Below are positions 6,721 through 59,185 of a DNA stretch of 60,000 bases, piece after piece. The stretch's first letter is position 1. Every line of letters starts with the position of its first letter. Source of the stretch: Lytechinus pictus (Eukaryota); the NCBI RefSeq assembly GCF_037042905.1, contig NC_087245.1:28274001-28334000 (forward strand), read 5' to 3'. Under the pieces are notes generated by a model that did no database searches, was not told where the DNA came from, and saw nothing but the letters and a program-made list of their open reading frames with translations. The translations under genes were made by a program, and so were the position numbers.

Positions 6721-8419
6721 AGCCTTATTTTCATCTCCCCCTTCCCTGTTCTCACAGAATTGCAATTCATATGAATTTTCACACTAGATGATATTATCAG
6801 CGATATTTTTGCAGGGTACAATCAACTAACATTGAAATGAAATATCGACCAACACTACGTTAGATGAGCACATGCAGCAATATACCCCACACACTGATAC
6901 ATGTACAGTAGCACAATCACTCTACAAAAAAAAAAAAAATAGTGCTTTGGAAGCAATGAAACGTCATCATGATCAGTGAGATACGCCCCCACAAAAGTGT
7001 TCATGGTGAGAGTACTCAATCATGACCACTTTAACATCATTCCTGCTTCTTTTCCCGCTTCTTTTCCCAGAAAGAAGACCATAGAGGCACCCTACTGTTA
7101 TAAATGCAATAAGAAAATTCCTTTTCTTCTTCTTTCCACTGTTTCTATAACACTCCACATGGTGTATCGTAAACCACATCAGCGAAGAGTAATTTCTTCT
7201 ACATTTTTATTATTCTGACCATTTTTTCACTGTTTAATATATTCGGTTCATCTGGTTTAGTGGTAAGAGCAGAGGACTCATGATCCTGAGGTTTTTTACT
7301 TAAAATCCCCACTTTTCCATTATCTCCACTTTAACCCCCCCCCCAAAAAAAAAAAGGCAATGAAAGTCATTCCTGATGTCTACATGCCCCTCTGACCAAT
7401 GGAGACATAAAATGTTTCCTATGTAATTGGTTACACCAGCTGTCCAGACAGTCCAGCTCAGCGTTAATCAGCAAAAAGCTGTGGTGCCAAGTTCCTAAAG
7501 CAGTTACTTCAACAAAAATAGAAACAAAGTTTCCCCAAGAGGGAAAAATCAATCAAAATTTGAAGAAAAAATGTTATTTCAACAATTGATCTACTTTGTC
7601 AAATATCTCCTAGTATACTATGACCTCACAAATTTTTAAACATTCTCACTCCAATCCTTTGTTATAACAGTAAAACAAAATCAATCATGCTTCTAGCCCT
7701 CCGCATTCAAACAAATTCATCTATCATCAAAATATTTGTATGTCTCCCCAAAATTCTCATGGAAAGTTCATGAAAATAGAGACAACTTATAAAGTATACA
7801 GAATGCAAATGTTACAAAATGGTCAACCAATCCACTCAAAGAAAATTCAATAGCCATGTCTGTGTCTGTTGCAGGAACAACAGCAACTGAAGAAGTGATT
7901 TATAATTTCAGGTGAATTTGATTTGAAGGAAATGAAATCTAATATTATTGCTTTCATCAATAAATGAACAATGTTTTATTGTCAAATCAGAGGATGCTTT
8001 GTCTACTCTTTAAATCATGATTTTCAACAGCCATACAATTAAAAAAATAAAGTAGACAGCATGCTTGGAGACCTCTATGAGAAAACATGGCATACAGTAA
8101 GACTATTTTACATGTTGGCTAGATTTTTATTTTGTTGCAATTAATGATTCAATTACAACAGAATGTACACACTTGTGGGTCATTGTGGCTGCTTTGACAC
8201 TTCAATATAATTTGGTTTTTCCTGTCATTTCTAATTGAATTTTAGACCATTGCATGCATTTGCTTCAAGTCATGTTGAAACCTGCTTGAATTGCCCAGAT
8301 GCTCAACACAAACTTCAGTCACCAAATAGGGCAAATATTCTTATTAGCAGAAAATCATCTTTCTAACGTTCATTTGCATATGTTTGTTGCATGATACTCA
8401 TGATGATGACAAAAAAAAA

Positions 8420-8482
8420 AAAATTATGATAATAATAATAACAATAATAATAATAATAACAACAACAATACCCGGTAATAAC

Positions 8483-8530
<48 letters not shown>
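8420..8530 (+). repeat. (TAA/CAA)n microsatellite, insertion site of the retrotransposon pair
   Basis: Direct TAA repeats immediately 5' of element 1. Confidence 0.95.
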
Positions 8531-8532
<2 letters not shown>

Positions 8533-11500
8533 AGTCAATAATGCTGGCAAGCCTAATGACGATGCCAACGACGACCATGCTGAAGCTAATAACGATGAAG
8601 CAGATAATGACAATGTTGCTATAAACGATAACCATGGCGATGTTGTGAACAATGACACAGCTGATGATCACTATGATGCCGATATTGATGGTAAGAATGT
8701 GTATCATAAAGGCAGGAACGAAGGAGGCCAACCAAATAAAGACGGGAGAGTAGAAACGTGTGACAAGAGATTATCAAGACATCCACCCAATGCCAATGAT
8801 ACGACATGGCCAGCCAATTATAATGAAAATTCGAAGATCACAGATACACAATCGCTACACAGCAAAGTGAGGAGGAAAAGAGAAAAGAAATTATGGTCAA
8901 ATAAAGAGAAGGAAAATCTTATGACTTGCTTCTACTTTGCGACTGATGTATCTCATAAAACTAGACATTACAGGAAGAGAATGAGAGAAACGTGGCTTGT
9001 AAATAATGGTGATCCATCCGTTGGAGAGCAAGCTCTGGCAGACATGAAACAAAGTATCCTTCGTACTCAATACTTCAGCGAGATTGAATTAGAGAGAATA
9101 AAGCAAGAGGCACACATACTTTGTAGAGAAGTCAATAATGCCGGTAATGACGATACCATCGATGACCATGGGGATGCTAAGGACAGTGATCATGACAATG
9201 CCGGCACTGGTGATACCAATAATGGCCCTGATGATAATGCCGATGTTGTTGATGCCAACGATGGCCATGGTGATAGTGATGACAAAAATGCCGATGATGA
9301 TGTCATCGAGGACCATAATGATGCTGATGACAAAAATACCGGTGATGATGATGCCTACGAGATCTATGGCCATTCTGACTACAATAGTGCCAATGGTGAC
9401 GAAGCCAAAGTAGGAAAATCGATGATTCTAGACACACAATCACTACACAACAAAGTGAGAAGAAAAGGAGAAAAGAAATTATGGTCAAATAAAGAGAAGG
9501 AAAATCTTATGACTTGCTTCTACTTTGCGACTGATGTATCTCATAAAACTAGACATTACAGGAAGAGAATGAGAGAAACGTGGCTTGTAAATAATGGTGA
9601 CCCATCCATTGGAGAAGAAGGTCTAGTGGACATGAAACAAAGTATCATTAGTACTCAATACTTCAGCGACATTGAATTAGAGAGAATAAAGGAAAATGCC
9701 CAAAGTCTTTGTAGAGAACGAAAGCGTAATGCAACAAAGAATCAAGATGACAGGGGAAAACGAATAACAGATAAAGTAGACAAATTGCACGACACCAACA
9801 ATGATAGAGAGAGATCGGGAAAAGGAGAAAACTCTGTAATCACCAACACTGAGAAGGTGAGAAATTCTATCCATGATGAAGGAAGTACAGTTCCTGGAAA
9901 TACAGTGAATATATCTCTTGACGAGGGGATTATATTCAACAATCAACAGGATGTTCGGACGCAGAGTGATAGGGGCTTACGAGATGGAGAACACAACCAA
10001 AGAATATCACAAGAACAACGTATGAATCGTCTTGATATGGACAGTGCTCAGAAGAAAAAAAAGAAAGATGACTACATCGCTCAATTTGGGGCGTGTTCCT
10101 TGTCTCTTCTACAAAAACTAGATGAAATCGAAACGGTAGACACACAGATTGAGGCCGAATACCAAAGAGGAGCACATTTCTTTCAGTACTGTGACACATC
10201 TGACAACAAGCCCGCTGGTGGAGAGGGAAAGGGATCAACGATGAACAGAAGAAAAAACAGCTCTTATAAGACTGGATTCTCTTCACATGTAGACATAAAC
10301 CAGCACTTGCAACAACCTAAAGTGAAATCTCGTACTCTTCGGGTTACAGCAATAGAAAAGGCTAAGAAAAGACAAGAAATTACTGAGACTGAACATGGGG
10401 ACGATGTTGCCCATTTTATATGCGGCGGAGAGCCTCACATTCAACAAGATAAAGAATGTGAAAGGAACGTATCGGGTAATATCAAATCATCTGTACCCGA
10501 GAGAGATACGATTGTATCACAAGACTCGACAAATGAAGACAGAGATTCCGATCAACGGCTGTTATCAGCACTGAGGAGCAACTTTGAATATGTGAAGGGA
10601 ATATCAATATCAGATAGACCACAAATTCCCAAGATCGACACAAGGTGCTGTACTACTAGGAGCGTGATCGACAAAGTAGATAAAATGCTTGAAAAGGTGC
10701 AATCTAGTCCTTCCAGTTTGTTGGAGATAAACTGTCTTATCTGGGCAGGTGCAAAAACTGTGACAGAACATATGGGACTCAAGCTTCATTCATCAAACCA
10801 CTCTACCAATCATAAGAAGAAGGCTCCTGAATGGAAGAAAAGGCTACAAACTAAGATAGCAGAACTACATAAAGACGTGGCTCAACTCGGAGAAGTAGAT
10901 AAGGGAAACATCAAATCCAATCGGATGAAGAGCAATGCCAAAAGACTTCAGAATAAATATCGCATTGACGATAAGACCCGTACTAGGACAACTGTTATAG
11001 AAACGCTCAAAATGAAGATAAATGCTCTCAAACACCGTGTTAAGAGATACACAAAGAGTAACAATTTCAAACGGCAGAATAAACTCTTCCATGGAAACAG
11101 AAAGAAATTCTTTCGTGAGCTGGATTCAAAGATGACTGAGACGAAAGATGTTCCATCGGCAGATGATATGAAGAACTACTGGAAAGAACTTTGGGATAAT
11201 GATATCACTCACGAAGAAACTCCCTGGATTCAGTCGGAAGCAGACAAATGGTCCAATGTGCCAGCGCAGCAGCTAGTAGACCTGACCTTACCTGAACTAC
11301 ACAATATCATAAGGAACACTCAGAACTGGAAAAGCCCTGGACCAGATGGTGTACAAAACTTCTGGATAAAGAGGTTTGGTAGCACCCATACTAATCTACT
11401 GAAAATCATCAATGACATTATCAGAGGGAACAGGACTATTGAGAAATGGCTGCCAATTGGAAGGACCTATCTACTGTACAAAGGCAAAGACCCAAAACAA

Positions 11501-13561
11501 CCTAAGAACTATCGTCCAATCACTTGCCTTAATACTATATATAAGCTGCTGACATCAACGCTTGCCATGCACATCGAACGACACATCGATGATCATGACA
11601 TAATGGAGGTCACTCAGAAAGGTTGTCGGAAAGGAAAGAAGGGTTGTAAAGATCACCTAATGACAAATAAAGCAATAATCGGTAATGCTCGCCAAAGACA
11701 GACCAATCTATCCATGGCTTGGATAGACTACAGGAAGGCATTTGACAGCGTACCACATAGTTGGATCATCAAAGTTCTAGAGATGTATCACATCAATCCA
11801 CAAATAGTCAAGTGCATATCAGCAGGCATGAAACAATGGAGCACTACTCTTTCGCTTACGATAGGCACCCGTTCGATGACAGTGGAGGGGGTCCGAATCA
11901 AGAGAGGAATATTTCAAGGAGATTCCTTATCTCCTCTTTTATTCTGCTTAGCTCTCAATCCAGTATGCTCTCTCTTACACGCTACGAGTTATGGCTACAG
12001 ATACAAAGGGCAAGATGTATCTACGACAATAAACCATCTGATATATATGGATGATATCAAACTCTTTGCAAAAAATGACGATGAACTTCACAAGATGATA
12101 GCAGTAGTTAAACATTTCAGCGATGACATCAAGATGTCGTTTGGTATAGACAAGTGTGCCAAAGTTACACTTGTACGAGGAAGGAGGGTAAATACAGGCG
12201 ACATGTTTGTGCAAGATGAGGAAACATCAATCAAGGAACTGACTAATGATTCGACATATAAATACCTAGGCATAGCTGAGAATGATGTCATTAGCCATAA
12301 CACAATGAAGGAGAAGGCAACATCAGAATACAAAAGAAGACTCAGGCTGATCCTCAAATCCGAACTGAATGCCAAAAATAAGATTGAAGCGATCAACACT
12401 CTAGCCATTCCTGTGCTTAGATACAGTTTTGGTATTGTTAACTGGAGACTAGCTGATATATGTGGCCTAGATGTTATGACCAGAAAGCAATTAACGATGC
12501 ACAGAGTACATCACCCAAAGGCCGCAATCGAAAGGTTGTACCTTCCCCGTGATCTTGGAGGAAGAGGTCTACAACAAATTGAGATGGTCTGGAATATGGA
12601 AGCAACGAACCTCGCCAACTACCTATCCAATCCACCTGATATACTGACGAGTATATCCCTCGATTATGATAAATGTCAAGCAATATACTCCATTAACAAG
12701 CAAGCATCTATCTTATTGGCACAACATCGACTGACACTACCCTACGGTGAAAAAGAGAAGGCAAGACTTAAATGCTCCTTTCACAAGAAACTTCAAGAGC
12801 AACTTAAATCCAAGCGACTTCATGGCCACCATGAAAAACAGACGCATCGGGAGTTTGTAGACCAGAAAGACACACATCAATGGCTTAAGTCGGCGGGACT
12901 AAGAGGTGAAACTGAAGGGTTCGTCTATGCTATTCAGGACCAGGTGGTGAGGACCCGTGCCTACGAAAAATCTATCCTCAGAAGAGACACAGACGACACT
13001 TGCAGGATGTGTGGAAAAGAGACTGAAACAATCATGCATTTGGTATCAGCATGTTCGACTCTTGCTGGAACTGAGTACATCACAAGACATGACAATATTG
13101 CCAAACTTATCCATTGGCAACTACTGAAGGATCGCGGTAAAATGACTTGTGATCACGCTTGGGAACATCAGCCACAAACGATCACCACGATCAATAACAG
13201 CACCATATATTGGAACTGTGGCATACTAACGGATAGAACCATCAACTGCAACAAGCCGGACATCATCGTCAGAGACAACAACGTAGTATATATCATTGAG
13301 GTCTCTGTTCCCCATGATATCAACATTGCTGTAAAGGAAAGAGACAAACGGCTCAAGTATCAAGACCTAAGGATTGAGATCGAGAGGATGTGGAACGTGA
13401 AAGCAGAGGTCACACCAGTCATCATTGGTCACTCAGGAATGGTGAAGAAGGGAATGGAAGCCTGCATAACCAAGATCTCTCCTCACCTTCGGATGTACGA
13501 CATTCAGAAGGCAGCTATCTTGGGTACAACCAGATTGATAAGAAAGACTCTCGGACATTAG
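8531..13561 (+). CDS. Retrotransposon polyprotein: 2x Myb-like module, reverse transcriptase, CCHC zinc knuckle, restriction-like endonuclease
   Basis: WKSPGPDG, NYRPITCL, QKGCRKG, WIDYRKAFDSVPH, GIFQGDSLSPLLF, YMDD, YKYLG, CRMC-x8-H-x4-C, RHD, KPDIIV, IEVSVP, KxxKY. No stops. The ORF-track start at 8384 is a TTG in flanking DNA reading through the microsatellite; the first in-frame ATG inside the element is ~8921. Confidence 0.93.
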
Positions 13562-13660
13562 TAGTGTAAAGTTCCTAGTTGCACTTGAAATTACTTGGTG
13601 CTTTTTGTTAGAGCAAAGTTATTCAAGAAAAAAATACGGACTTGATCCTGTTTAGAGGAA
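8531..13660 (+). mobile_element. Non-LTR retrotransposon, RLE type, R4/Dong-like (element 1), probably 5'-truncated
   Basis: Single ORF with RT, CCHC and PD-(D/E)xK endonuclease motifs; flanked on both sides by (TAA)n; ~100-nt 3' UTR after the stop at 13561. Confidence 0.92.
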
Positions 13661-13668
13661 TAATAATA

Positions 13669-13702
<34 letters not shown>

Positions 13703-13703
<1 letters not shown>

Positions 13704-16492
13704 CAAGAGAGAAACTGCTGATAGAAACTCAGAAAGTCAACGATGTTATGAAGTTTATCAGCTCAGACAGTATTGAGGATACCAATGATCTCATATATGC
13801 TGGAGCAGTTCTGGTATTAAAACAGAGAGGTTAGGTGTAAGAAAACAGGAGAACACAAGGAAGCACTGCCTACCACCATGGAAAAGGAGACTTGATAATC
13901 AGATAAAGGGATGGAGGACAGACCTATCAAGACTGACAGAGATAAACCTTGGAAAAGCAGATATCAATGATTTTAAGTACCTTGAGGGGAAGTACAGTAT
14001 TAGAAGGAAAGGAAGGAAGATCGTCGTGGAGGAACTAAAACAAAGAATAACAAGCACTACAGCAAAAGTAAAGAGGTACACCGATCGAGTGTCACAGTAT
14101 AGACAGAATTCCTTGTTTGAGAACAACCAGAAGAGGTTCTACCAAGAAATAAATGGAAAGATGAAAGACGAAGTTCCACCACCAGATCCAGCTGAAGCAA
14201 TTGCCTTCTGGAGCAACATTTGGAGCCAACCACACAATCACAACCAAGAAGCTATGTGGTTGAAAACAACGAAAGAGGAATGTGCAAATATAGTTGCACA
14301 GGATGATCTGACGATCAACAAAAGCAAGCTAGAAAAGATCATTAGGAAAATGGCGCCATGGAAAGCTGCCGGTCCAGACGGTGTGCAAGCTTTCTGGGTT
14401 AAAAGGTTCACAAATCTTCATGAAAGGCTGAGCATGCAAATGAACGAGATTGTCGTGAATGGTAACCCCCCTAATTGGATGACAAAAGGAAGAACGGTTC
14501 TCATCCCAAAGGATCCTACCAAAGGCAACATTCCGTCAAACTACCGTCCAATTACCTGCTTGCCGATTCTCTGGAAGTTACTGACTGGCATAATATCAGA
14601 AGAAATATATCAACACCTGGACGATCAAGCCATACTACCATGGGAACAGAAGGGATGTAGAAAAGGAAGTAGAGGAACAAAAGAACAACTATGCATCGAC
14701 AAAGGAATTATGAAGGACAGCAAGAAAAGAAAAACGAACCTCGCAATGGCATGGATTGACTACAAGAAAGCATACGACATAGTTCCACACTCTTGGATCA
14801 TCGAGTCTATGGAAATGTTAGGGGTAGCAGACAATATCAGAAGGTTCCTCATTACAAGTATGACGAGATGGAGAACTAAGTTGGAAAGTAATGGTGAAGT
14901 GCTTGGAGAGGTTGGTATCAAGAGAGGAATCTTTCAGGGAGATAGTCTATCTCCATTGCTGTTTGTGATGGCAATGACACCATTAACTAAGGTACACAGA
15001 AGATCCAGGCTAGGATATGAGTTCAAGAGCAAGGCAAAAATCAACCATCTATTATACATGGACGATTTGAAGCTGTTTGGTATGACACAAAGTGACTTGG
15101 AGTCTCTCATCAACACTGTGCGGATCTTCAGCGAAGACATCGGTATGCAGTTTGGGATGGATAAATGTGCAATGATTACTCTCATGAGAGGTAAGCCAGC
15201 CAATGACAACAACTTCCAGATGCCGAACGGAGAAGAGATCAGATCAATCGAAGACGGTGGTAGCTATAAATATCTCGGAATATTAGAGGCAGATCAGTTG
15301 AAACATCAAGAAATGAAGAAGAAGATTGAGGCAGAGTATATCAGGAGAATTCGGAAGGTGCTCAAATCCAAACTAAATGCTGGAAACATGGTGAAGGCTG
15401 TTAACACTTGGGCAGTAGCCCTAGTGAGATATGCTGCTGGCATAGTTGAATGGAACAAGCTTGAACTCGAAACCCTGGACAGGAAGACAAGGAAGTTGCT
15501 AACTATGCATGGGATGTTTAACCCAAAGTCTGATGTAGATAGACTTTATGTGTCAAGAGAGAAGGGAGGACGTGGTCTGGCTGGAATAGAGGAGACTGTA
15601 AGATATGAGGAACAAAGCCTAGACTGCTATATTGAAGGCCAGATGGATAGCATCATGGCGGCAGTCGATGAGGAAAGGAAAGGATGTGACAGCCAAACAG
15701 CTGAAGGCTGATCAAAGGAAAATGAGACTGGAAGGATGGAAAGAGAAGGTGATGCACGGGCAGCATTTAAGACAGACAGAGGAGTTTGCTGGACCAGAGA
15801 GTTGGCAGTGGCTGAAACGAGGAAGTTTAAAGAAGGAGACGGAAAGTATGCTAGTTGCTGCTCAGGACCAAGCAATTAGAACAAATTACCGAAGAGCCAA
15901 AGTTGAAAAGGAGCATACATCTCCCTCATGTAGAATGTGTCATGACAAAGACGAAACGGTGTCTCATCTGGTGAGTGAATGCAGCAAAATGGCACAGACA
16001 GAGTACAAAGGAAGGCACGACAGAGTATCAGCTGCAGTTCATTGGGGTCTGGCCAAGAAGTACCATTTACCTCATGCGGAAAAATGGTACGAACATCGGG
16101 CAGAGCCTGTAGTAGAGAACGACGATGTAAAACTTTTATGGGATTTTAATATCCAGACAGACAAGGTCATTGAAGCTAGACGACCAGACATCGTTCTCTT
16201 AAAGAAGAAGGAAAAGGAATGTCTCATCATAGATATTGCGATTCCGGGAGACTGCAGAGCTTGGCGTAAAGAGGAGGAAAAGATACAGAAGTATAACGAT
16301 CTGGCATGGGAGCTGAGAAGGATATGGAAGGTGAAGACGAAGGTGGTACCAATAGTCATCGGAGCCTTAGGAACAGTGACAACAAGACACAGAAGCTTTC
16401 TGGCTGTTCTAGGAGTCGAGGTGTCCTTTGAAACGATACAGAAGGCAAGCTTGCTTGGAACAGCTCATATCTTACGGAAGGTCTTGAATTAG
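13703..16492 (+). pseudogene. Frameshifted RT-RLE polyprotein of element 2
   Basis: Segments PREKLL..DLIYAGAVLV / ERLG..PPWKRRL..WKAAGPDG..YMDD / HGQHLR..CRMC..RHD..RPDIV..DIAIP; frame changes near 13820 and 15650-15680. Confidence 0.88.
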
Positions 16493-16618
16493 AAAGAGAA
16501 GTGAACAATGAGAAGAGGACCCATTTGATAGAATATAGAACAATAACCCTAGATTTCTGGAAGAAGTTTGGTTGCTGTTTAATATACCAACAGAACATCA
16601 AGTTGTGGACAATGGAAG
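13703..16618 (+). mobile_element. Second R4/Dong-like RLE non-LTR retrotransposon (element 2, different family), 5'-truncated
   Basis: Starts mid-ORF right after (TAA)n; RT and RLE motifs; 3' UTR 16493-16618 followed by (TAA)n. Confidence 0.92.
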
Positions 16619-16824
16619 TAATAATAATAATAATAATAGTAATAATAATAATAATAATATTAATAATGATCCTATTTAGAGGAATAATAATAATAATAAT
16701 TATAATAATATACCATCAATGATCATTTGAATATATAAAATTTCAACTAAATTGAAATCTAAGGTAGATGTCAACTAACTGATCAAGATGGAATTCTATA
16801 CTAAGAATACTAAGAATACTAAGT

Positions 16825-17119
16825 ATGATACTCATGATGATGACAACAACAACAGTGGCAGCAACAACAAAAATTATGATAATTATAATAACAACAACAA
16901 CAATAATAATAACAATGAATAACAACAATAATAATAATTAAAAAAATAATAATAGTATAAGTAATAATAATAATGATCCTATTTAGAGGAATAATAATAA
17001 TACTAATAAGTATAATAATAATATACTATCAACGATCTTTTGAATATATGAAATAAACAAATTTCAACAAAATTGAAATCTAAGGTAGATGTCAACTAAC
17101 TGATCAAGATGGAATTCTA
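16825..17119 (+). repeat. Second copy of a ~300-bp locally duplicated unit whose first copy (8391-8530 + 16619-16798) is split by the two retrotransposons
   Basis: ATGATACTCATGATGATGACAA..AAATTATGATAAT at 8391 and 16825; TGATCCTATTTAGAGGAA..GAAATCTAAGGTAGATGTCAACTAACTGATCAAGATGGAATTCTA at 16667-16798 and 16974-17119. Confidence 0.85.
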
Positions 17120-17819
17120 GTCTTGGGTGACAAATCATTAACCCCAGCCCCTCCATTGTCTTCCAAATATTTCAAAAAGATCTACAATGTATATTAACAT
17201 TAGTCTTTGTGTGAGATCAAGTGCTTCATACAGTAGAATGGATTTTAAAAAAATAATCACTTGTATTTGTAATGTCCTCTTATGTTATCAGTAACCTTGG
17301 TACATCGTGAGCAAATATCTGACACTATCATATCTTCAGATTTGTTATAAAAAATAATTTCTGTATACAGAAAATACACATTTCTCAGAATATCTCCCAC
17401 ATCAGGAATGTTTTTGTAATCGCTTGGAAGATTTTTCAAAATATTTTGTAGACCACCAAAGGCTTATATATATGCCTGACTGCATTGAAATCTACAGTAG
17501 ATGGCAAAGTAGTGAGAAAACATGTTATGTTAAAAACACCTTGACCTTTAGAAGCTTGCGTAGCTTTTGATTCTTTCAAAAAACATGCAGCATACGTGTA
17601 TAATGTGCACAGTACAGGGGACACAACACCAGTGTATCAAGTCAATAATCTACAGGCCAGAGGGTTGTTTGTCATACATGTATGATCAACTGGTTGAATA
17701 TTATATTCCTTAAAAATTAATGGCAGTTCTCATCTGCAGAGTGATATTTCCCCTTTCAACTATAAACCAGGCCTCTCCTCGTCTTGTCCTTCTTCTTCAT
17801 CCTTTTCCTTTTTTTTCAT

Positions 17820-17901
17820 AATCTTCATCATCATCGCCACCATCATCATCATCATCACCAGTCGAACCACCATCATCATCATCATCATCATCACCACCAC
17901 C

Positions 17902-17933
<32 letters not shown>

Positions 17934-18270
17934 CATCATCATCACCATCATCATCACCATCATCACCTCATTCTTGTTGTATTTTAATCTTCCCCTTCTC
18001 CTTCTTTTTCGTCTTCTTCTATTCCTCCTTCATCATTTTCTACTTCTCTCTCTTCAAAATCATCATTCATTTTCATCATCATCATCACTATCACCATCAT
18101 CATCATTACCATCATCATCTCATTCTTGTTGTACTTTCCTACTTTTATCTTCTCCTCCTCCTTCCTTTTCTTCTTTTTCTTCACGATCATCTCATATATG
18201 CATTGTATTCTTAATATCATCATCTCCTCCTCTTTCTTCTTCTTGAACTTCTACCTCTTCTTCTTTTTTC
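17820..18270. repeat. (CAT/CAC)n microsatellite and CT-rich low-complexity tract
   Basis: Direct inspection; explains the poly-His and poly-Met ORFs. Confidence 0.95.
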
Positions 18271-20362: not shown

Positions 20363-20862
20363 TTAATCAAAACACTATTTAATCTGGGTTTTAGGGTTAG
20401 TTTGCATGTGAAGTGAATACTAAAACAACAAAAAGCTTATGGTACAAGACAATGTGAATGTGTATGCCCTACTTATTTTACATCTTTTTTTTTTCCGATC
20501 AGGTGCCGCTCAAAATATAAAACAAAATAAAACTAGATTTTAATTCGTCATGCGGACGAATTAGGTGGTCTGTCCTTATTCTCGCCATCATGATCACTAT
20601 TACCATGTTCAAGCAGATCAATATGATCTTCATGATGACAACGGAATGTTCATTGTGGATGGAATACTTGTGAAAGACGGGAGATGATAAAGCACTGTGA
20701 AAAGGGTCTCTTTGATATATGAAAATACAAGTGATATGAAAAAAGTTATTATAATCTGTTAAATCTTGCTAAATTTTAACTTTCATACCTTTTAATTATC
20801 ATAACGGATCATGTACGAGGTGGTAAAAAGAAAAAAAAAATGAAAAAAAAAATCATCTTGTT

Positions 20863-20936
20863 CACCCCCAGGACTCGAACCTGCGCCCCCGAGAACTCAA
20901 GTCAAGTGCGTTATCCATTGAGCCACGATATTCCCC
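20863..20936 (-). pseudogene. tRNA-like (SINE-head-like) segment inside the Helentron; second copy at ~28711-28784
   Basis: GGGGAATATCGTGGCTCAATGGATAACGC...GCAGGTTCGAGTCCTG: A and B boxes present, anticodon and acceptor stems poorly paired. Confidence 0.6.
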
Positions 20937-21280
20937 ATAGAGATTACACGTTCCCATAGAGATTACACGTAAGCAAATTTGAGAATTACAAATCCAATTT
21001 TGGAAGCGAAAAACGGGCATGATCCTGACATCTGATCGAAAAATGGAGGGCACACTTCCGAAAGCTTAGAATCTCAGCTACATCATACCAAAAGCTCAGG
21101 GATAACTAACAAGAAAAAATGGAGATATAGCTCACGAAATAGAGGAATGTAGAATCTAGTTTTGAGAAAAAGTCATGTCCCATAGAGACTACACGTAAAA
21201 TGAGGAAAAATGACATGCCTCTTTTCATCGCAATTTTACACCATGATGCGTTTTTCAAAATGAAAATTCATGCTAACTGA

Positions 21281-24200
21281 TATGAGGCGCCGAATGTACC
21301 ATTATTATATAGAACAATTATTTGTTATATAATCATTATTTATTAAATAATAACTATTATTTATAAATAATTTACATTTTATTTGTAAATAACTACTATT
21401 ATATAAAATATCATTTCTAATTATTTATATATAATTCCAAGTAATACTTCATTATTTGTAAATAATAATAGTTCGACATTCCATTATTTATAAATAATGA
21501 TTATTTGTTTTTCATTATTTATAAATAATGATTATTTGTTTTTCATTATTTATAAATAATGATTATTTGTTTTTCATTATTTATAAATAATGATTATTTG
21601 TTTTTCATTATTTATATATAATGATTATTTGTTTTTCATTATTTACAAATAATGATTATTTGTTTTTCATTATTTATAAATAATGATTATTTGTTTTTCA
21701 TTATTTATAAATAATGATTATTTGTTTTTCATTATTTATAAATAATGATTATTTGTTTTTCATTATTTACAAATAATGATGATTTGTTTTTCATTATTTA
21801 TAAATAATGATTATTTGTTTTTCATTATTTATAAATAATTTGTTGAGTTTTCCATTATTTATAAATAATGATTATTTGTTAAATAATGAAAACGTCTACT
21901 TCATTATTTATAAATAATTTTTCGAGTGCACCATTATTCTCATTATTTATAAATAATCATTATTTAATGTTCGAGTTTTCCATTATTTATAAATAAAGAT
22001 TATTTGTTAAATAATGAAATATCTACTTCATTATTTATAAATAATAATTTTGTTTCAATATCCCATTATTTATAAATAATCATTATTTATAAACAATTTT
22101 TACAGTTTGCCATTATATACAAATAATCATTATTTATATACAAATAACCATTATTTATTAAATAATGCCATTATTTATTAAATAATGCCATTATTTATTA
22201 AATAATGCCATTATTTATTAAATAATGCCATTATTTATTAAATAATGGAAAACTCGCTATAACATGCAAATGTGGGACCGCCCATGATATGAATATTCAT
22301 GATGCGATTTCCTTTTTCGTGATTTTTCTTCACAAATTTTTGTCCATTTCCTCTTCATAATGACATTTCTTGAAGCAATTTTCTAGGGATATGGTCTGAT
22401 TGTAATATTCTTCATTTTCTATATAGCTTCGTCTTCGTAGAAATATCAAAAAGTGTAATTTTATACGATTTTTCCTACAGTTCACAATCCCCATAGGCGC
22501 GCGTGTACGGTAGGGACAACCGGTGAATCGACGGAGTGCTCTTCATCGAAATACTACGTTGGTTGGTCCCCGGAAGTGGCGGGCGGAATTTAGCCCGAAT
22601 CCTCGATGGAAGTCGATCAAGTGCATATGAGCTGAGAGAGTGAAATATCAGTGTACTTGTACAGGCCCTTCTACTTTTTATAAATATTTCTTGTTGCTTT
22701 TTTTGTTAAGTTAATTTTTCCTGGTGTAGAAATAAGTTTCAGTTCTAATAATGCACTTCAAATACATTTTGGAGTGTCTGTTTGAGGCGTTTGGGGCGAT
22801 TTCACCCTGGCCCCAAAATGCTCGCAACGACAATACGGGGGCATGATGACCCCTAATTTTTAAAAAACTTATTTTTCTATTGAAAATTATCACAAAATTC
22901 ACCAAAAGTGTGCACGAAAGCCTTCGTATTTCACTTTTAAAACTCCGAAAAGTGCCCAAATGACAAGCTTGGTCGCTTCGCTGTGTCGCTTTCAACTTGA
23001 GAACGTTTACGCGTCTGCTCCCCCCCCCCCCCTCCTCCGAAAGAAATTCTGTATACGGCCATGCTCTAAAGAGCCTGGCACATTGATTTATGTATACTTT
23101 CATTTTCATTATTTTTATCTCATTATCAACATGGCCTTACGCAGAATTTTTTCCAGGGGGGCCGGGGCCGGAGCATGACGCGCGTAAACTTTCTCAAAAA
23201 AATCTTGAAAGCGAGACAGCCACGGGACCAAGCCCAAATGACAAGCTTTGTCGCTTCGCTGTCTCGCTTTCAACTTGAGAACGTTTACACGCGTCTGCCC
23301 CCACCCCCCGAAAGAAATTCTGTGAACAGCCATGCTCAAAAGAGCATATGGCACATTGATTTATATGTACTTTTCATTTTCATTATTTTTATCACATTAT
23401 CATCATGGCCTTACACAGAATTTTTACCGGGGGGGGGGGGGGGGGCAGCTAGGACGCACGTAAAGTTTCTCAAAAAAATCTTGAAAGCGAGACAGCGACG
23501 TGACCAAGCTCAAATGACAAGCTTGGTCGCTTCGCTTTCTCAAGATTTTTATGAGAAAGTTTACGCGCGTCCTGCTCCCCCCCCCCCCCCCCCCCCCCGG
23601 AAAAAATTCTGCGTAAGGCCATGATGATAATGAGATAAAAATAATGAAAATGAAGTATACATAAATCAATGTGCCAGGCTCTTTAGAGCATGGCCGTATA
23701 CAGAATTTCTTTCGGAGGAGGGGGGGGGGGGCAGCTAGGACGCGCGTAAACTTTCTCATAAAAATCTTGAGAAAGCGAAGCGACCAAGCTTGTCATTTGA
23801 GCTTGGTCGCGTCGCTGTCTCGCTTTCAAGATTTTTTTGAGAAACTTTACGCGCGTCCTAGCTGCCCCCCCCCCCCCCCGGTAAAAATTCTGTGTAAGGC
23901 CATGATGATAATGTGATAAAAATAATGAAAATGAAAAGTACATATAAATCAATGTGCCATATGCTCTTTTGAGCATGGCTGTTCACAGAATTTCTTTCGG
24001 GGGGTGGGGGCAGACGCGTGTAAACGTTCTCAAGTTGAAAGCGAGACAGCGAAGCGACAAAGCTTGTCATTTGGGCTTGGTCCCGTGGCTGTCTCGCTTT
24101 CAAGATTTTTTTGAGAAAGTTTACGCGCGTCATGCTCCGGCCCCGGCCCCCCTGGAAAAAATTCTGCGTAAGGCCATGTTGATAATGAGATAAAAATAAT

Positions 24201-26009
24201 GAAAATGAAAGTATACATAAATCAATGTGCCAGGCTCTTTAGAGCATGGCCGTATACAGAATTTCTTTCGGAGGAGGGGGGGGGGGGGGAGCAGACGCGT
24301 AAACGTTTTGAAGTTGAAAGCGACACAGCGAAGCGACCAAGCTTGTCATTTGGGCACTTTTCGGAGTTTTAAAAGTGAAATACGAAGGCTTTCGTGCACA
24401 CTTTTGGTGAATTTTGTGATAATTTTCAATAGAAAAATAAGTTTTTAAAAAATTAGGGGTCATCATGCCCCCGTATTGTCGTTGCGAGCATTTTGGGGCC
24501 AGGGTGAAATCGCCCCAAACGCCTCAAACAGACACTCCAAAATGTATTTGAAGTGCATTATTAGAACTGAAACTTATTTCTACACCAGGAAAAATTAACT
24601 TAACAAAAAAAGCAACAAGAAATATTTATAAAAAGTAGAAGGGCCTGTACAAGTACACTGATATTTCACTCTCTCAGCTCATATGCACTTGATCGACTTC
24701 CATCGAGGATTCGGGCTAAATTCCGCCCGCCACTTCCGGGGACCAACCAACGTAGTATTTCGATGAAGAGCACTCCGTCGATTCACCGGTTGTCCCTACC
24801 GTACACGCGCGCCTATGGGGATTGTGAACTGTAGGAAAAATCGTATAAAATTACACTTTTTGATATTTCTACGAAGACGAAGCTATATAGAAAATGAAGA
24901 ATATTACAATCAGACCATATCCCTAGAAAATTGCTTCAAGAAATGTCATTATGAAGAGGAAATGGACAAAAATTTGTGAAGAAAAATCACGAAAAAGGAA
25001 ATCGCATCATGAATATTCATATCATGGGCGGTCCCACATTTGCATGTTATAGCGAGTTTTCCATTATTTAATAAATAATGGCATTATTTAATAAATAATG
25101 GCATTATTTAATAAATAATGGCATTATTTAATAAATAATGGTTATTTGTATATAAATAATGATTATTTGTATATAATGGCAAACTGTAAAAATTGTTTAT
25201 AAATAATGATTATTTATAAATAATGGGATATTGAAACAAAATTATTATTTATAAATAATGAAGTAGATATTTCATTATTTAACAAATAATCTTTATTTAT
25301 AAATAATGGAAAACTCGAACATTAAATAATGATTATTTATAAATAATGAGAATAATGGTGCACTCGAAAAAATTATTTATAAATAATGAAGTAGACGTTT
25401 TCATTATTTAACAAATAATCATTATTTATAAATAATGGAAAACTCAACAAATTATTTATAAATAATGAAAAACAAATAATCATTATTTATAAATAATGAA
25501 AAACAAATAATCATTATTTGTAAATAATGAAAAACAAATAATCATTATTTATAAATAATGAAAAACAAATAATCATTATTTATAAATAATGAAAAACAAA
25601 TAATCATTATTTATAAATAATGAAAAACAAATAATCATTATTTGTAAATAATGAAAAACAAATAATCATTATATATAAATAATGAAAAACAAATAATCAT
25701 TATTTATAAATAATGAAAAACAAATAATCATTATTTATAAATAATGAAAAACAAATAATCATTATTTATAAATAATGAAAAACAAATAATCATTATTTAT
25801 AAATAATGGAATGTCGAACTATTATTATTTACAAATAATGAAGTATTACTTGGAATTATATATAAATAATTAGAAATGATATTTTATATAATAGTAGTTA
25901 TTTACAAATAAAATGTAAATTATTTATAAATAATAGTTATTATTTAATAAATAATGATTATATAACAAATAATTGTTCTATATAATATTGGTACATTCGG
26001 CGCCTCATA
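21281..26009. mobile_element. Foldback-type (TU-like) element: ~2.3-kb inverted arms, ~150-bp spacer, 6-bp TSD AACTGA
   Basis: Ends TATGAGGCGCCGAATGTACC / GGTACATTCGGCGCCTCATA; AACTGA at 21275-21280 and 26010-26015; uninterrupted paralogous site at ~29090-29125. Confidence 0.9.
21482..21840. repeat. 31-bp AT-rich minisatellite in the left foldback arm (mirrored at ~25450-25810)
   Basis: Unit CATTATTTATAAATAATGATTATTTGTTTTT, about 11 copies, containing an 18-bp perfect palindrome. Confidence 0.92.
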
Positions 26010-29000
26010 AACTGACGAGAAAGAGTACATTCTAAACTACAACATATTGAAATCTGGGCGACAAATGATCAATATTCACGGAGTTATGATCAAATTTGCA
26101 TAAATTTGATGACGTCATTTTTGAAAAAATGAAATTTTCAGTTTAGGCGCAATTTTGATGACGTCATGATCAAATTGAGGGACAATGGTGACATGAAATC
26201 AAATTTACAACTCATACTCTATCGATATATGAAAAAAAAATTGGGGGTCAACGGACTATTTAAAGAGCTACAGTGAATTTTTAATAGGTATGTTTTTGCC
26301 CATATATGGCCTATAGTAAGAGCTCGCGCGCACACGTGCTGCAAAGTTTAACGGGTGTTAATTTCGTTATTAATGGTCGTAGAAGGTTGATCAAGGTATC
26401 AAATTGCTCAGAATTATATTATCAATGCAAGGATATAAAAAAAACGGCGTTTCTGCGTTGCGTTGAAGGCGTTACGCGCGGAAACGCGCGCGCATACCTG
26501 TGCGTGCGCAAATTTTTGAAATGCTTAAAATGACCTGAAACGTACTTTAATTTGGTCAAAAGGTGATTTTGAGCATTTTAAAAATTTGACGAGCGCGTAC
26601 GCGCGCGTCGTGACCTCCAGGTGACCTTTGATGACATGACCTGTTGACCCTTAACCTGAAATTGATGTGATGTTAATTTGATTGATTTTTGATAATTGAT
26701 AATGGAGATATGATCGACAATGTGATTTTACAAAATGGCGCCTGGATGACGTCATCATGACCTGATGACCTTGAAAAAGTTGATTTTACTTGAAATCATA
26801 GAGCTTGATGACTGACAGAAATTTGAAGGAAATTGACCATGTCGATTTCGAGTGAACGTGTGTACAAAAAAGTGTACGGAAGAAATAAAAATAAATAAAG
26901 AAATAAAGAATAAAGAATAAAGAAAGAAAATTCTGGCGAAATCAATAGGTGTTCTGTCATAGACAGACCACCTAATAAATAAATAAAGAATAAAGAAAGA
27001 AAATTCTAGCGAAATCAATAGGTGATCTGTCGTTGACAGACCACCTAATAAAGAAGAAAGAATTGAGCTAAAATATTTCCCATAGACTTTACACGTAAGG
27101 AAAATACGAGAATATCCAATCCAATTTTGCAAGTGAAATACGGGCATGATCCCGGCATCTGATCGAAAAAATAGGTTGACATTTTCGAAAGCTTAGAATC
27201 TCAGCTACAACATACTAAAAGCTCAGGAAAAACTGACAAGAAGAAATGGAGATATGGCTCACGAAATAGAGGGATGTCGAATCTAGTTTTGAGAAAAAGT
27301 CATGTCCCATAGAGATTACATGCAAAATGAGGAAAAATGACATGTCTTTATTATTTGCAATTTTTGAGGATGATCCGTTTATTAAAATGAAAATTAAAGG
27401 CAATAATTCAGAAGAGTAAGACTTAAGCTACAACATATCGAAAAATGGGCGAAAATTGACCAATATTCACGGAGTTAGAGCCTAATTTGCATAATTGTTA
27501 TGACGTCATAACAAGGGAAATGGATATTTTAAGTTCCGACGCCATTTTGATGATGTCATGATCGAATTGAGGGACAATGGTGACATGAAATCAAATCTAC
27601 AACTCAAATTCTATCGATATATGAAAAAAAAATGGGGGTCAACGGACTATTTAAAGAGCTACAGTGAATTTTCAATAGGCATGTTTTTGCCCATATATGG
27701 CCTATAGTGAGAGCTCGCGCGCACACGTGCAGCAAACTTTAACGGGTGTTAATTTCGTTATTAATGGTCGTAGAAGGTTGATCAAGGTATCAAATTGCTC
27801 ATAATTATATTATCAATGCAATGATATAAAACAAAACGTATTTCTGCGTTGCGTTGGAGGCGTTACGCGCGGAAACGCGCGCGCATACGTGTGCGAGCGC
27901 AAATTTTTAAAATGCTTAAAATCACCTAAAACGTACTTTACTTTGGTCAAAAAGTGATTTTGAGCATTTTAAAAATTTGACGCGCGCATACGCGCGCGTC
28001 GTGACCTCCAGGTGACCTTTGATGACATGACCTTTCGACCCTTGACCTGAAGTTGATGTGATGTTAATTTGATTGATTTTTGATAATTGATAATGGAGAT
28101 ATGATCGACAATGTGATTTTACAAAATGGCGCCTGGATGACGTCACGATGACGTGATGACCTTGAAAAAGTAGATTTTACTTGAAATCATAGGGCTTGAT
28201 GACTGACAGAAATTTGAAGGAAATTGACCATGTCGATTTCGAGTGAACGTGTGTACAAAAAAGTGTACGGAAGAAATAAAAATTCTGGCGAAATCAATAG
28301 GTGATCTGTCGTTGACAGACCACCTAATAAAGAATAAAGAATAAAGAATAAAGAAAGAAAATTCTGGCGAAATCAAGAGGTGATCTGTCATAGACAGACC
28401 ACCTAATAAAGAATAAAGAATAAAGAATAAATAAAGAAAGAAAATTCTGGCGAAATCAAGAGGTGATCTGTCATAGACAGACCACCTAATAAAGAATAAA
28501 GAATAAAGAATAAATAAAGAAAGAAAATTCTGGCGAAATCAAGAGGTGATCTGTCATAGACAGACCACCTAATAAAGAAAGAAAATTCTGGCGAAATCAA
28601 GAGGTGATCTGTCTTTGACAGACCACCTAATAAAGAAAGAAAATTCTAACGAAATCAATAAGTGATCTGTCATCGACAGACCACCTAATGAAAAAGAAAA
28701 TCACCTTGTTCACCCCCAGAACTCGAACCTGCGCCCCCGAGAACTCAAGTCAAGTGCGTTATCCATTGAGCCACGATATTCCCCATAGAGATTACACGTA
28801 AGCAAATTTGAGAATTACAAATCCAATTTTGCAAGCGAAAAACGGGCATGATCCTGGCATCTGATCGAAAAATGGAGGGCACATTCCGAAAGCTTACAAT
28901 CTCAGCTACATCATACCAAAAGCTCAGGGGTAATTAGCAAGAAAAAATGAAGATATAGCTCACGAAATAGAGGAATGTAGAATCTAGTTTTGAGAAAAAG

Positions 29001-31079
29001 TCATGTCCCATAGAGATTACACGTAAAATGAGGAAAAATGACATGCCTCTTTTCATTGCAATTTTACACCATGATGCAATTTTCAAAATGAAAATTTATG
29101 TTTATTGAAGAAAAAGAGTACATTCTAAACTACAACATATCGAAATCTGGGCGAAAAATAATCAATATTCACGGAGTTATGATCAAATTTGCATAAATTT
29201 GATGACGTCATTTTTGAAAAAATGAAATTTTCAGTTTAGGCGCAATTTTGATGACGTCATGATCGAATTGAGGGACAATGGTGACATGAAATCAAATCTA
29301 CAACTCATACTCTATCGATATATGTAAAAAATTGGGAGTCAACGGACTATTTAAAGAGCTACATGGAATTTTTAATAGGCATGTTTTTGCCCATATATGG
29401 CCTATAGTAAGAGCTCGCGCGCACACGTGCTGCAAACTTTAACGGGTGTTAATTTCGCTATTAATGGTCGTAGAAGGTTGATCAAGGTATCAAATTGCTC
29501 AGAATTATATTATCAATGCAATGATATAAAAAAAACGGCGTTTCTGCGTTGCGTTGAAGGCGTTACGCGCGGAAACGCGCGCGCATACCTGTGCGTGCGC
29601 AAATTTTTGAAATGCTTAAAATGACCTGAAACGTACTTTACTTTGATCAAAAAGTGATTTTGAGCATTTTAAAAATTTGACGCGCGCGTAAGTGCGCGTC
29701 GTGACCTTCAGGTGACCTTTGATGACATAACCTGTTGATTCTTGACCTGAAGTTGATGTGATGTTAATTTGATTGATTTTTGAAAATTGATAATGGAGAT
29801 ATGATCGACAATGTGATTTTACAAAATGGCGTCTAGATGACGTCATCATGACCTGATGACCTTGAAAAAGTTGATTTAACTTGAAATTATAGGGCTTGAT
29901 AACTGACAGAAATTTGAAGGAAATTGATCATGTCGATTTCGAGTGAACGTGTGTACAAAAAAGTGTACGGAAGAAATAAAAATAAATAAAGAATAAATAA
30001 AGAATAAAGAATAAAGAAAGAAAATTCTGGCGAAATCAATAGGTGATCTGTCATAGACAGACCACCTAAATATCTGCATATTTTGTCTTGCTCATATGAA
30101 GCCCCTTATCACGCTGTGTAATGGGTTTAAAAAATCAGGATATAGTCTTTGTCTGAAGCTTGCTAACAGCCAATTACTTAATGTGTAGTTCATTTCAGTG
30201 CTCAAATTCATGTCTATTTTCAAATTAGAATAAGAACACTAACAAGAGAGGATGCTACATTAGTTGCCAAATTCAAAATTCTAATGGCTGAAAAAGCCAA
30301 ATTTGAATTCCAGCGGCAGAAAAAACAACTAATGGCCCCTACGACTTTTGTACAATTGGAATGTTGTAATTGAGTATAATAAAAGTCTAACTCTTTACAA
30401 CTTTAGGCTTTATACAGGCCTTAACACAGGTCTCTGAATACATTTAGTGTTCCAATGATTTGATTCATAGCTCAGCATGAATTGCTAAATTTTCAACTTT
30501 TTCACCCCTTTGAATATTATCTCAAAGCAAGTACCGGTACATGTAATGTAAGTCACCAACCAATGGTCATGGGAAAATTTATTAAAAACACTAAAGCATG
30601 TACATGTACCATACCAAAAAAAGGGGGTAATCCAAACTGAGAGGGCTAAAATTCAAAGATTGTTAATATATTCAACAATTTTAATTTAGGCCTCTGAAAA
30701 TAATAGAGCAGCAACTCATCTTTTTTTTGGTATTTGTCACTCATGTACATGTACATGTTGTACCACTGACATCATGCAATACATTTAAAGCTGAAAAAGG
30801 TGAAATACAACACAGATATTTTACTTTTTCCCCCTATTTTTGGTTTACAGTGAATAGAAGCTCATTATTATGGTTAATCAGACTTGCAACTTTTTAGCCA
30901 TGCATAGTGAGAAAAATGGCTTTATCTATTAAAGTTGCCAATCTTCAAACAGAGAAATCACTCAGCTGAAGCATCAGTGAAATTGCATTTCAGTTGACGC
31001 TCTTACTTGCCCAAAATATGAATTCATACCAGTTTTCTTCATCACTGAGCATGGTATAAATATCGTAAGTTCATCTCAG

Positions 31080-40280: not shown

Positions 40281-40350
40281 CTATGGAATCAGGAACAGGG
40301 AGGTGGTAACCTTCGTCAAGAGGCTGCATTCTAAAGGAGGTGGCTACTGA
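40281..40350 (+). CDS. SNRNP25: SNRNP25 coding exon 4 (stop)
   Basis: (D)YGIRNREVVTFVKRLHSKGGGY*; polypyrimidine tract plus CAG acceptor. Confidence 0.92.
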
Positions 40351-41470
40351 TCATATCAGGACCATGCCAAAGGCTTCCAATAGCAGAGAGTCCGAAGCGC
40401 AGCCATGGCCTAAACAGATGATCATATCAGTGTCATGATCAGGTTCTAGTAGCAGAGAGTCTGAAGCGCATCTATGACTAACCTAAATGGTTGATCGTAT
40501 TAGGATCATGCCAAATGGTTCCAATAGCAGAGAGTCCGAAGCGCAGCCATGGCCTAAACAGATGATCATATCAGTGTCATGATCAGGTTCCAGTAGCAGA
40601 GAGTCTGAAGCGCATCTATGACTAACCTAAATGGTTGATCGTATTAGGATCATGCCAAATGGTTCCAATAGCAGAGAGTCCGAAGCGCAGCCATGGCCTA
40701 AACAGATGATCATATCAGTGTCATGATCAGGTTCCAGTAGCAGAGAGTCTGAAGCGCATCTATGACTAACCTAAATGGTTGATCGTATTAGGATCATGCC
40801 AAATGGTTCCAATAGCAGAGAGTCCGAAGCGCAGCCATTGCCTAAACAGATGATCATATCAGTGTCATGATCAGGTTCCAGTAGCAGAGAGTCTGAAGCG
40901 CATCTATGACTAACCTAAATGGTTGATCGTATTAGGATCATGCCAAAGGGTTCCAATAGCAGAGAGTCCGAAGCGCAGCCATGGCCTAAACTGATGATCA
41001 GGTTCCAGTAGCAGAGAGTCTGAAGCGCATCTATGACTAACCTAAATGGTTGATCGTATCAGGATCATGCCAATGGGTTCCAATTGTGGAGAGTCTAAAG
41101 TGCAGTCATTGCCTGAACAGTTTATCATATTAGGATCATACTGAAGGGTTCCAATAGCAGAGAGTCGAGGAAGCACAGCAGTAGTCTGAATGGTTGATCG
41201 TATCAGGATCATGCCGAAGGGTTCCAATAGCAGAGGGTTTGAGGAAGCGCAACAGTGGTCTAATTAACGGTTGATCGTATCAAGATCATGCTAAAGGTTC
41301 CAATAGCAGAGGTTTTCAAGAAGTGCAGACAGAACAGTCAATCATATCACGATCATGCAGAAGGGTTCCAATAGTAGAAAACCAAAGCACAACTATGGCC
41401 TGAACAGTTGATCACATCAGTATTATTCTGAAAGGTTCCAATAGCAGACAGTCGAAGTAAGTGCAGCCAA
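40348..41470 (+). repeat. 144-bp dimeric tandem repeat (~70+74-bp related monomers) in the SNRNP25 3' UTR
   Basis: CCAATAGCAGAGAGTCCG recurs at 40377, 40521, 40665, 40809, 40953; diverged monomers continue to ~41470. Confidence 0.93.
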
Positions 41471-47379: not shown

Positions 47380-47690
47380 TGAGAAAGGGGAAAAGGAGAA
47401 GAAGAAGCGGAGGAAGAAGTAGAGAGGGGAAGAATGAAATGAAGGAGTGGAAAGGGGAGAAGAGTGAGGAGGAAGGAGGTGGTGGTGGACGAAGAGGACG
47501 AGAAGAAAAATGAGAGGAAGCAAGAATAAGGAGGAGGAGGAGGAAAAGAAGAGGAAGAAGAAAAAGAAGATGAAGGAGGAGGAGGAGAAGAGGAAGAAGA
47601 AGAAGTAGAAGAAGAAGGAGGAGGGGGAGAAGAAGAAGAAGGGAGAGGAGAAGAAGAAGAAAAAAAATAAGAAGGAAAAAAGAAGAAGTT
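47380..47690. repeat. (GAA/GAG)n purine-rich low-complexity tract
   Basis: Direct inspection. Confidence 0.9.
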
Positions 47691-51825: not shown

Positions 51826-51924
51826 CTGTTATGAAAATATGAACAAATTCAACAAAATAAAAATAAACTTCCATCCAATCGATGATTCACTTTTTAAGAT
51901 AGAGTACAGTGTAGATTGTAAGTT

Positions 51925-58853: not shown

Positions 58854-59185
58854 TATATCATACTGTTTGAACTGAAATTCATTGAGAGTTAATTTTCTAT
58901 AAAGTTCGAGTGAAACACCAAAATTCAAATAGTTAGAATCAATTCTAGCATGTCTTGAGTGAAAATATGTATTTCAAAACAAAACCAATTACAATTCACT
59001 ATATGTATTGTACCCTGTTTTTTAAGAGATGTGGAAAAATGGAATTTGAATTTGAACTCTTCCTTTTTGTCTTTGTAATAATCCCTCGAGAGCTATAGAA
59101 CTAACGCATCCACACCCACATGCGCACTTACAGGCACACAACCCACGCACCCTCTCACACACACCCACACACAAATTCAACTGAC

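Follow-up and report, generated by a model that had tools for sequence, protein, structure and literature searches.

How do two different retrotransposon families come to lie head to tail within a single microsatellite? We addressed this question in the sea urchin Lytechinus pictus, in a window of 60,000 nt (the whole stretch analysed; assembly GCF_037042905.1, contig NC_087245.1, forward-strand positions 28,274,001 to 28,334,000; coordinates below are those of the window), where TAA tracts at 8429-8530, 13659-13702 and 16619-16710, delimited by Tandem Repeats Finder (TRF), enclose two elements coding for reverse transcriptase (RT), both on the plus strand. We consider it very likely that one TAA-rich microsatellite was struck three times by R4/Dong-type elements through target-primed reverse transcription. 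The layout (TAA)n - element 1 - (TAA)n - element 2 - (TAA)n, all in plus orientation, had been proposed in a first-pass annotation and is real; that annotation missed an empty paralogous copy of the target, the 16-nt remnants described below and the 5' truncation of element 1.

The TAA tract and its empty paralog

Elements 1 and 2 sit in a host unit of about 300 bp that has been duplicated in tandem. They interrupt unit 1, which survives as two halves, while unit 2 contains neither of them, as laid out here:

8391 to about 8530, plus strand: left part of host unit 1, sharing 75% identity with 16825-16976 in unit 2 (alignment, TRF)
8429-8530, plus strand: TAA-rich end of this left part, with a pure (AAT)16 at 8483-8530; 5' flank of element 1
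8531-13658, plus strand: element 1 (family 1), R4/Dong-type, 5'-truncated; stop at 13561, 3' untranslated region (UTR) of 97 nt
13643-13658, plus strand: terminal 16 nt of family 1, present in X4 (five) and X6 (four) contigs and followed there by A-rich or AAT sequence
13659-13702, plus strand: spacer (AAT)4 AGT (AAT)9 AA, bordering element 1 on its 3' side and element 2 on its 5' side
13703-16619, plus strand: element 2 (family 2), R4/Dong-type, 5'-truncated; stop at 16492, 3' UTR of about 127 nt
16620-16798, plus strand: right part of host unit 1, comprising an (AAT)6 AGT (AAT)6 tract, a remnant, more TAA and a unique end; 84% identical to 16927-17119
16667-16682, plus strand: 16-nt remnant with TAA on both sides, matching the family-1 3' end at 15 of 16 nt
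16825-17119, plus strand: host unit 2, tandem paralog and empty target, with a remnant at 16974-16989 and two AGT interruptions

Unit 2 is an empty paralog of the target. Given that it holds a TAA-rich tract of its own, the repeat is older than the insertions and not merely a tail that they brought along, which bears out the earlier proposal that TAA was a pre-existing target here. The association of TAA with the elements also goes beyond chance, since the plus strand of the 60 kb has 12 pure (AAT)4+ runs and 10 of them fall in this locus. The first-pass annotation had called the site a hotspot; stacking at one TAA tract did occur, but the label may reflect no more than the longest TAA tract of the window. 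No further copies of family 1 or 2 were found within the 60 kb.

The third strike is represented by the 16-nt motif, which occurs in the window only at 13643, 16667 and 16974. We take this motif for the family-1 terminus because contigs of two other runs read through it into AAT or A-rich sequence. The contig comparison behind this statement leaves out runs with a share below 0.2 (X9-X13) and the repeat places 13652-13710 and 16610-16650; families 1 and 2 are both covered by contigs of all four runs compared. The remnant is therefore probably an older, extremely 5'-truncated family-1 insertion, later duplicated together with the host unit. If the motif were instead host sequence or a piece of a small repeat, the site would have been targeted twice only. 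Its shortness, its one mismatch and its presence in both host units speak for that origin, which we nevertheless regard as unlikely, given that family-1 copies from two independent runs terminate in this motif, which has no other place in the 60 kb and is flanked by TAA runs as an insertion would be.

The unique ends of the two units differ by five mismatches and one 8-nt gap in their last 91 nt, whereas elements 1 and 2 differ from X1 contigs at only 14 of 2656 nt and 7 of about 1000 nt, respectively (X1 may be the window's own source). This divergence of the unit ends, set against the youth of the elements, fits an order in which the 16-nt family-1 remnant would have come first, the tandem duplication of the ~300-bp unit second, and the two young insertions, in unit 1 only, last.

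TAA at the ends of related elements

Related loci offered a broader view of the same pattern. We compared 81 of them, namely 80 of 479 confirmed metagenome loci and one viral-collection locus (from nine candidates); they contained 90 plus-strand segments, of which 59 had sufficient upstream flank to be used; the remaining 31 were set aside. A (TAA)3+ run on the element strand was present at 22 of 31 truncated 5' starts (5 of 9 clusters) and at 12 of 28 full-length starts (7 of 12 clusters), and on the opposite strand at 1 of 31 and 0 of 28. Background windows carried such runs on the element strand in 6 of 588 (truncated) and 5 of 167 (full-length) cases, and on the other strand in 3 of 588. 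Within the subclade of element 2, five of nine testable loci had TAA at the 5' side. TAA was likewise present in the 3' tails of 26 of 37 rows. Among distinct tails with at least 100 nt of flank, 8 of 18 were followed by a same-strand copy and none by a copy on the other strand; once tails fetched via the downstream element were removed, 4 of 14 remained stacked, with L005 and L014 short and possibly assembly effects. The stacks at L022 and L072 join different clusters. Stacking is common across the clade, and both the fixed orientation and the stacking behind earlier tails that had been predicted for this locus are thus seen in its relatives. At the locus itself, (TAA)n on the element strand flanks both elements and the remnant, and the family-1 3' end is constant across copies and then continues into AAT.

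The viral-collection locus, L081, carries an R4/Dong-type element of nearly full length, preceded by (TAA)17 and followed by (TAA)97, on a contig that is probably misfiled eukaryotic DNA. Some 3' ends of relatives run into other repeats, (TC)n in L015, (TA)n in L025, (TTA)n on the element strand in L033 and (CAA)n in L068, possibly as a result of shifts of target or tail in the clade.

Several observations weigh against TAA targeting as the general rule. Cluster F0 contributes 23 of the 31 truncated segments (18 with TAA), leaving 4 of 8 with TAA among the others; the rows L053/L077, L020/L021 and two of L005 are duplicates; and a rerun at the nucleotide level gave only 24 of 46, partly from shared flanks and from alignment limits that misplace junctions. 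Opposite-strand neighbours exist in L036 and L038, not behind tails. Element 1 is without a close relative of known flanks, its deep place in the RT tree is unsupported (0.18), and L015, which stands near it on a weak branch, is the locus ending in (TC)n. Finally, 22 of 407 contig loose ends were displayed, ten of them on the 5' side with repeat places left out. Of these ten, three coincide with indels and a fourth is a match of 42 nt within a long contig. The remaining six (X1 10996; X4 10191; X6 12353; X14 15928, 16136 and 16480) are all non-TAA; they are not a fair sample, though they lend targeting no support either, and may be true non-TAA junctions, later rearrangements or leftovers after TAA masking.

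These six ends are also what an alternative would predict in which TAA is only a tail added by the elements, which otherwise have a loose preference for AT-rich or simple-repeat DNA and hit the longest patch nearby. Relatives without 5' TAA in the tested window (9 of 31 truncated, 16 of 28 full-length) and the GAT, CAG, GAA or CAA runs at junctions of L038, L044, L047 and L068 point in the same direction. However, the empty paralog places the TAA tract before the insertions, all three insertions share one orientation, and the 5' TAA of relatives is strand-specific and far over background (element strand, 22 of 31 against 6 of 588; opposite strand, 1 of 31 against 3 of 588), so that we give this alternative only a small chance.

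The TAA tracts also bear on how element 2 arrived. The first-pass annotation had read a shared interruption as compatible with a target-site duplication, and TAATAGTAAT indeed lies at 13667 and 16634, that is, in the tracts on either side of element 2, as well as at 52671 and 53591, unrelated places in the window. Given that AGT interruptions are rare in relatives (1 of 34 TAA tracts of at least eight units), those on either side of element 2 probably have a single origin. But the tracts are not the same: the spacer reads (AAT)4 AGT (AAT)9 AA, whereas to the right of element 2 stands (AAT)6 AGT (AAT)6 ATT (AAT)2, a difference of one unit and one substitution. Two AGT are, moreover, already present in the empty unit. 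The tracts are explained equally well by a duplication of about 40 bp and by two separate hits in a single interrupted tract. It is very improbable that the pair stems from one event (a template jump or read-through co-transcript) or was joined later by ectopic recombination or gene conversion between TAA tracts, since, even though the elements are about equally young (0.5-0.7% from X1 contigs), lie 44 nt apart and meet at a junction (13652-13710) outside the contig comparison, where contigs bridging or lacking it could not show, the AGT of the spacer is found in the host tract and in only that one of 34 relatives' tracts, which argues for host target DNA between the elements, and mixed-family stacks recur at the unrelated loci L022 and L072.

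Under repeated insertion into the microsatellite, the restriction-like endonuclease (RLE) of an element would nick the (TTA)n strand, and the freed 3' end would prime cDNA synthesis on the 3' end of the element RNA, a synthesis that would mostly stop early and leave 5'-truncated copies. As the target repeat is asymmetric between its strands, all insertions would take the same orientation with (TAA)n on both sides, and the site would remain usable, allowing families that share the TAA target to stack head to tail. The chemistry of target-primed reverse transcription is established for R2, and by analogy its nicking and priming steps would apply here. The TAA preference of both families would presumably hold genome-wide, and their N-terminal Myb-like domains would act in target choice. 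Family 1 also seems to have amplified this N-terminal domain to about four copies with acidic linkers.

Two R4/Dong-type lineages and their known relatives

That two different lineages met in this tract, as the first-pass annotation had held, is supported by several comparisons. The proteins of elements 1 and 2 are identical at only 255 of 652 (39%) and 97 of 282 (34%) positions, and their 3' UTRs gave no blastn match to each other. In an RT tree built with FastTree from 158 sequences and rooted at the midpoint (no outgroup and no record named Dong or R4), the elements fall in different deep branches at a patristic distance of 1.88 substitutions per site. Element 2 clusters with L018, L028 and L026 (support 0.99) and element 1 with P0115 (0.96), the deeper position of the latter being unsupported (0.18). 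Both fall inside a homolog set with Bombyx, butterfly, psyllid and shrimp proteins, distant from R2; no record named Dong or R4 was present among the homolog clusters. The order RT, CCHC knuckle and RLE (PD..D/E..K) is present in both elements, P0001-P0003 gave no Pfam APE match, and no ribosomal RNA match was found in 8000-17500, where the flanks are TAA microsatellite. A scan of the same interval against Rfam found no ribozyme, with one chance match (E 0.49), both copies being without their 5' ends. The locus behaves as Dong does and very probably belongs to the R4/Dong clade. In two R4/Dong-type homologs, P0067 and P0083, Pfam places an OTU-like cysteine protease domain at the N-terminus, with scores above its cut-off.

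Element 1 has the following coding features:

8834-9130, plus strand: Myb/SANT-like domain A, third of four in record P0180 (profile match; model with a predicted local distance difference test score, pLDDT, of 82 and four helices)
9422-9718, plus strand: Myb/SANT-like domain B, fourth of four, its protein 85% identical to A; repeat period 588 bp
11492-12274, plus strand: reverse transcriptase domain (Pfam RVT_1, residues 1049-1309, E 3.6e-29)
12044, plus strand: YMDD (motif position)
13001-13360, plus strand: CCHC knuckle and RLE motifs (motif positions)

The first-pass annotation had described a stop-free reading frame of about 5 kb with intact YMDD, CCHC and PD..E..K motifs. The motifs are all there: the knuckle, C-x2-C-x8-H-x4-C, lies at 13001, RHD at 13085 and KPD..E..K at 13253-13336, and a Pfam zf-RVT match stays under its cut-off; their meaning follows established knowledge of R2 and other RLE elements (PMC5678591). 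The frame, 8348-13561, is open over 1737 codons, but its opening 61 codons are host repeat. Element 1 is 5'-truncated and lacks at least 585 codons and the 5' UTR, given that its start at 8531 corresponds to residue 586 of P0180 and that one X6 contig runs from element linker sequence into 8529, upstream of this start. We rejected the lack of an in-frame ATG before 8921 as a proof of truncation because R2 proteins require no start methionine (PMC13580325 section 6); the evidence for it comes from P0180, P0181 and the X6 contig. With its N-terminal codons and 5' UTR gone, this copy of element 1 is most likely dead.

Element 2 keeps YMDD, CCHC and RLE motifs, the last of the RPD/KPD..E/D..K type across both elements. 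Its frame is broken near 13816 and 15662, where it has indels relative to other copies, and one X6 contig reaches about 1 kb farther upstream of 13711 than it does; it is thus a 5'-truncated, frameshifted copy that lacks its N-terminal part, including the region of the Myb/SANT-like domain. Of the earlier description of element 1 as young and possibly active, youth stands, but the element itself is incomplete; families 1 and 2 may be active, though neither window copy likely is. Summed contig depth rises toward both 3' ends in X4 and X6, a trend that numerous truncated copies would produce, but this depth gives no copy number and was not used as evidence.

Against this background, the stacked layout is ordinary for the R4/Dong clade and represents no new behaviour. 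Dong, DongAg and DongBg target TAA microsatellites (PMC3812793), and TAA targeting by Dong and more than one Dong family per genome are both published (PMC3812793, PMC7998251). Dong from Bombyx mori, DongAg, DongBg and Darwinula Dong1 and Dong2 resemble the present elements in their single open reading frame, putative N-terminal Myb/SANT-like domain with no zinc finger evident before it, RT, CCHC and RLE, as well as in (TAA)n on both sides and several families per genome (PMC7998251, PMC3812793, PMC3774820). The Dong 5' junction follows TAA repeats and carries a self-cleaving ribozyme similar to that of hepatitis delta virus (PMC3774820), whereas neither window copy retains the 5' region where the ribozyme would lie. 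In contrast to Dong, family 1 appears with about four Myb-like domains and Asp/Asn-rich linkers, a comparison that included no Dong-named sequence directly. R2 of Bombyx and bird (PDB 8gh6, 8ibw, 9nl2, 9nl3) is likewise of the RLE type, with RT homology to E 2.7e-25, and residues 136-215 of 8ibw give a weak fold match to the N-terminal domain (Z 5.6, root-mean-square deviation [rmsd] 7.1, 78 aligned). However, R2 is far more distant, scoring 91 bits where the homolog set scores 670-911; its N-terminus carries zinc fingers, and its target is 28S ribosomal DNA. Utopia elements of the NeSL clade are also target-specific RLE elements inserted in tandem (PMC4640811), but belong to another clade and use another target, U2 small nuclear RNA genes. 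In the literature searched, with most subscription journals and Repbase outside it, we found nothing on stacked Dong families or on sea-urchin Dong elements with multiple Myb domains.

The N-terminal domain array and the surrounding window

The amplified Myb-like array of family 1 is the sole feature beyond the known Dong pattern. A domain of about 95 residues is found at the N-terminus of 109 of 123 clade proteins, once in 103 and twice in six, including element 1. A model built from 23 sequences has a pLDDT of 82 and four helices; a single-sequence fold was poor (pLDDT 58) and was not used. The best fold matches of the 23-sequence model are mostly of Myb/SANT type and include Sap1 (Z 6.4, rmsd 5.7, 82 aligned), GT-1 (Z 6.1, rmsd 4.6, 66 aligned), Zeste (Z 5.7, rmsd 2.9, 67 aligned), NgTRF (Z 5.7, rmsd 5.0, 76 aligned) and the Myb of Tbf1 (Z 5.5, rmsd 2.5, 61 aligned), every Z being below 8 and hence weak. 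Foldseek returned no match to the model at E 0.001, and Pfam and PDB sequence searches with the domain gave nothing meaningful. The R4/Dong clade is described as having an N-terminal SANT/Myb-like domain without N-terminal zinc fingers (PMC7998251), and no zinc finger is evident in the N-terminus of P0180. The modelled fold seems to agree with that SANT/Myb assignment, short of proof.

A search with the N-terminal part retrieved, among 6232 candidates, two Lytechinus pictus gene models, XP_054761583.1 and XP_054775458.1, that are 97% and 94% identical to it. They reach about 585 and about 500 residues farther upstream, stop before the RT, and are annotated as host genes, 'protein PFC0760c-like'; to judge from their sequences, they are N-terminal parts of family-1 retrotransposon copies. 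The 97%-identical model, P0180, has four domain copies and the other, P0181, three, one of them partial. In P0180, identity is 99% between copies 2 and 3, falling to 85% for copy 4 and to about 50% for copy 1, and the linkers of the array consist of 30-34% Asp+Glu. The upstream linkers have DNA-level matches in two single X6 contigs. Four domains and an RT appear to be joined in one family-1 protein, as the overlap with automatic gene models suggests; the full frame would be about 2,261 residues long, whereas 120 homologs have a median of 1,203 and reach 1,504 at most.

We considered and rejected the idea that the four-domain array is unique, since other multi-domain proteins exist: the best 150 of 2,013 representatives comprise 130 with one domain, 17 with two and three with three or more, in a ranking that favours multi-domain proteins. 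Among unrelated proteins, P0193 has three copies, P0183 has four and no RT-side match, and P0182 has seven, with partial units. P0184 is another family-1 record, in which the units are arranged differently. In the five two-domain homologs compared, the two members of a pair mostly resemble each other, or their own small group, more than any other domains, a pattern suggesting that the domain was duplicated independently more than once. Variable numbers of zinc finger and Myb motifs have been described in early-branching elements (PMC5678591) and in R2 (PMC13580325). Microsatellite recognition in general has been called unsettled (PMC3812793), and PMC7998251 argues for the Myb domain in target recognition.

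Elsewhere in the window, long microsatellites of (TAG)n, (TCA)n and (AGA)n together with a minisatellite of 144/73 bp (51924-52678, 17816-17965, 47501-47688 and 40348-41455) hold no inserted element. A near-perfect palindrome of 4.7 kb at 21281-26009, 97.5% identical to its own reverse complement and composed of tandem repeats of 31, 20 and 275 bp, resembles a foldback-type element; its single long frame had no Pfam match. To its right, 26013-30069 contains direct repeats of 1.0-1.3 kb (86-96% identical) with subunits of 58-83 bp, and 28687-29108 matches 20839-21280, directly left of the palindrome. A frame on the minus strand at 59025-59480 encodes a HYR domain (Pfam E 3.2e-16) and is probably a host-gene exon.

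The stacking itself teaches little. With an empty target unit, two young insertions and what is probably an older remnant side by side, the locus makes a tidy teaching case. The two 'PFC0760c-like' Lytechinus gene models are retrotransposon pieces. More speculatively, family 1 could be an active Dong lineage encoding a protein of about 2,260 residues whose Myb-like domains, recently amplified to a copy-variable array of up to four with acidic linkers between them, act as a sensor of avidity or length for the microsatellite, an idea that we find doubtful rather than likely. If it were true, an array favouring long (TAA)n would explain the repeated hits on one tract, and the family would offer a natural test of whether the number of DNA-binding modules tunes target choice in site-specific retrotransposons. 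The near-identical repeated domains of family 1 would provide a system in which binding can be related to domain number and tract length, a question that bears on the retargeting of RLE retrotransposons for gene insertion.

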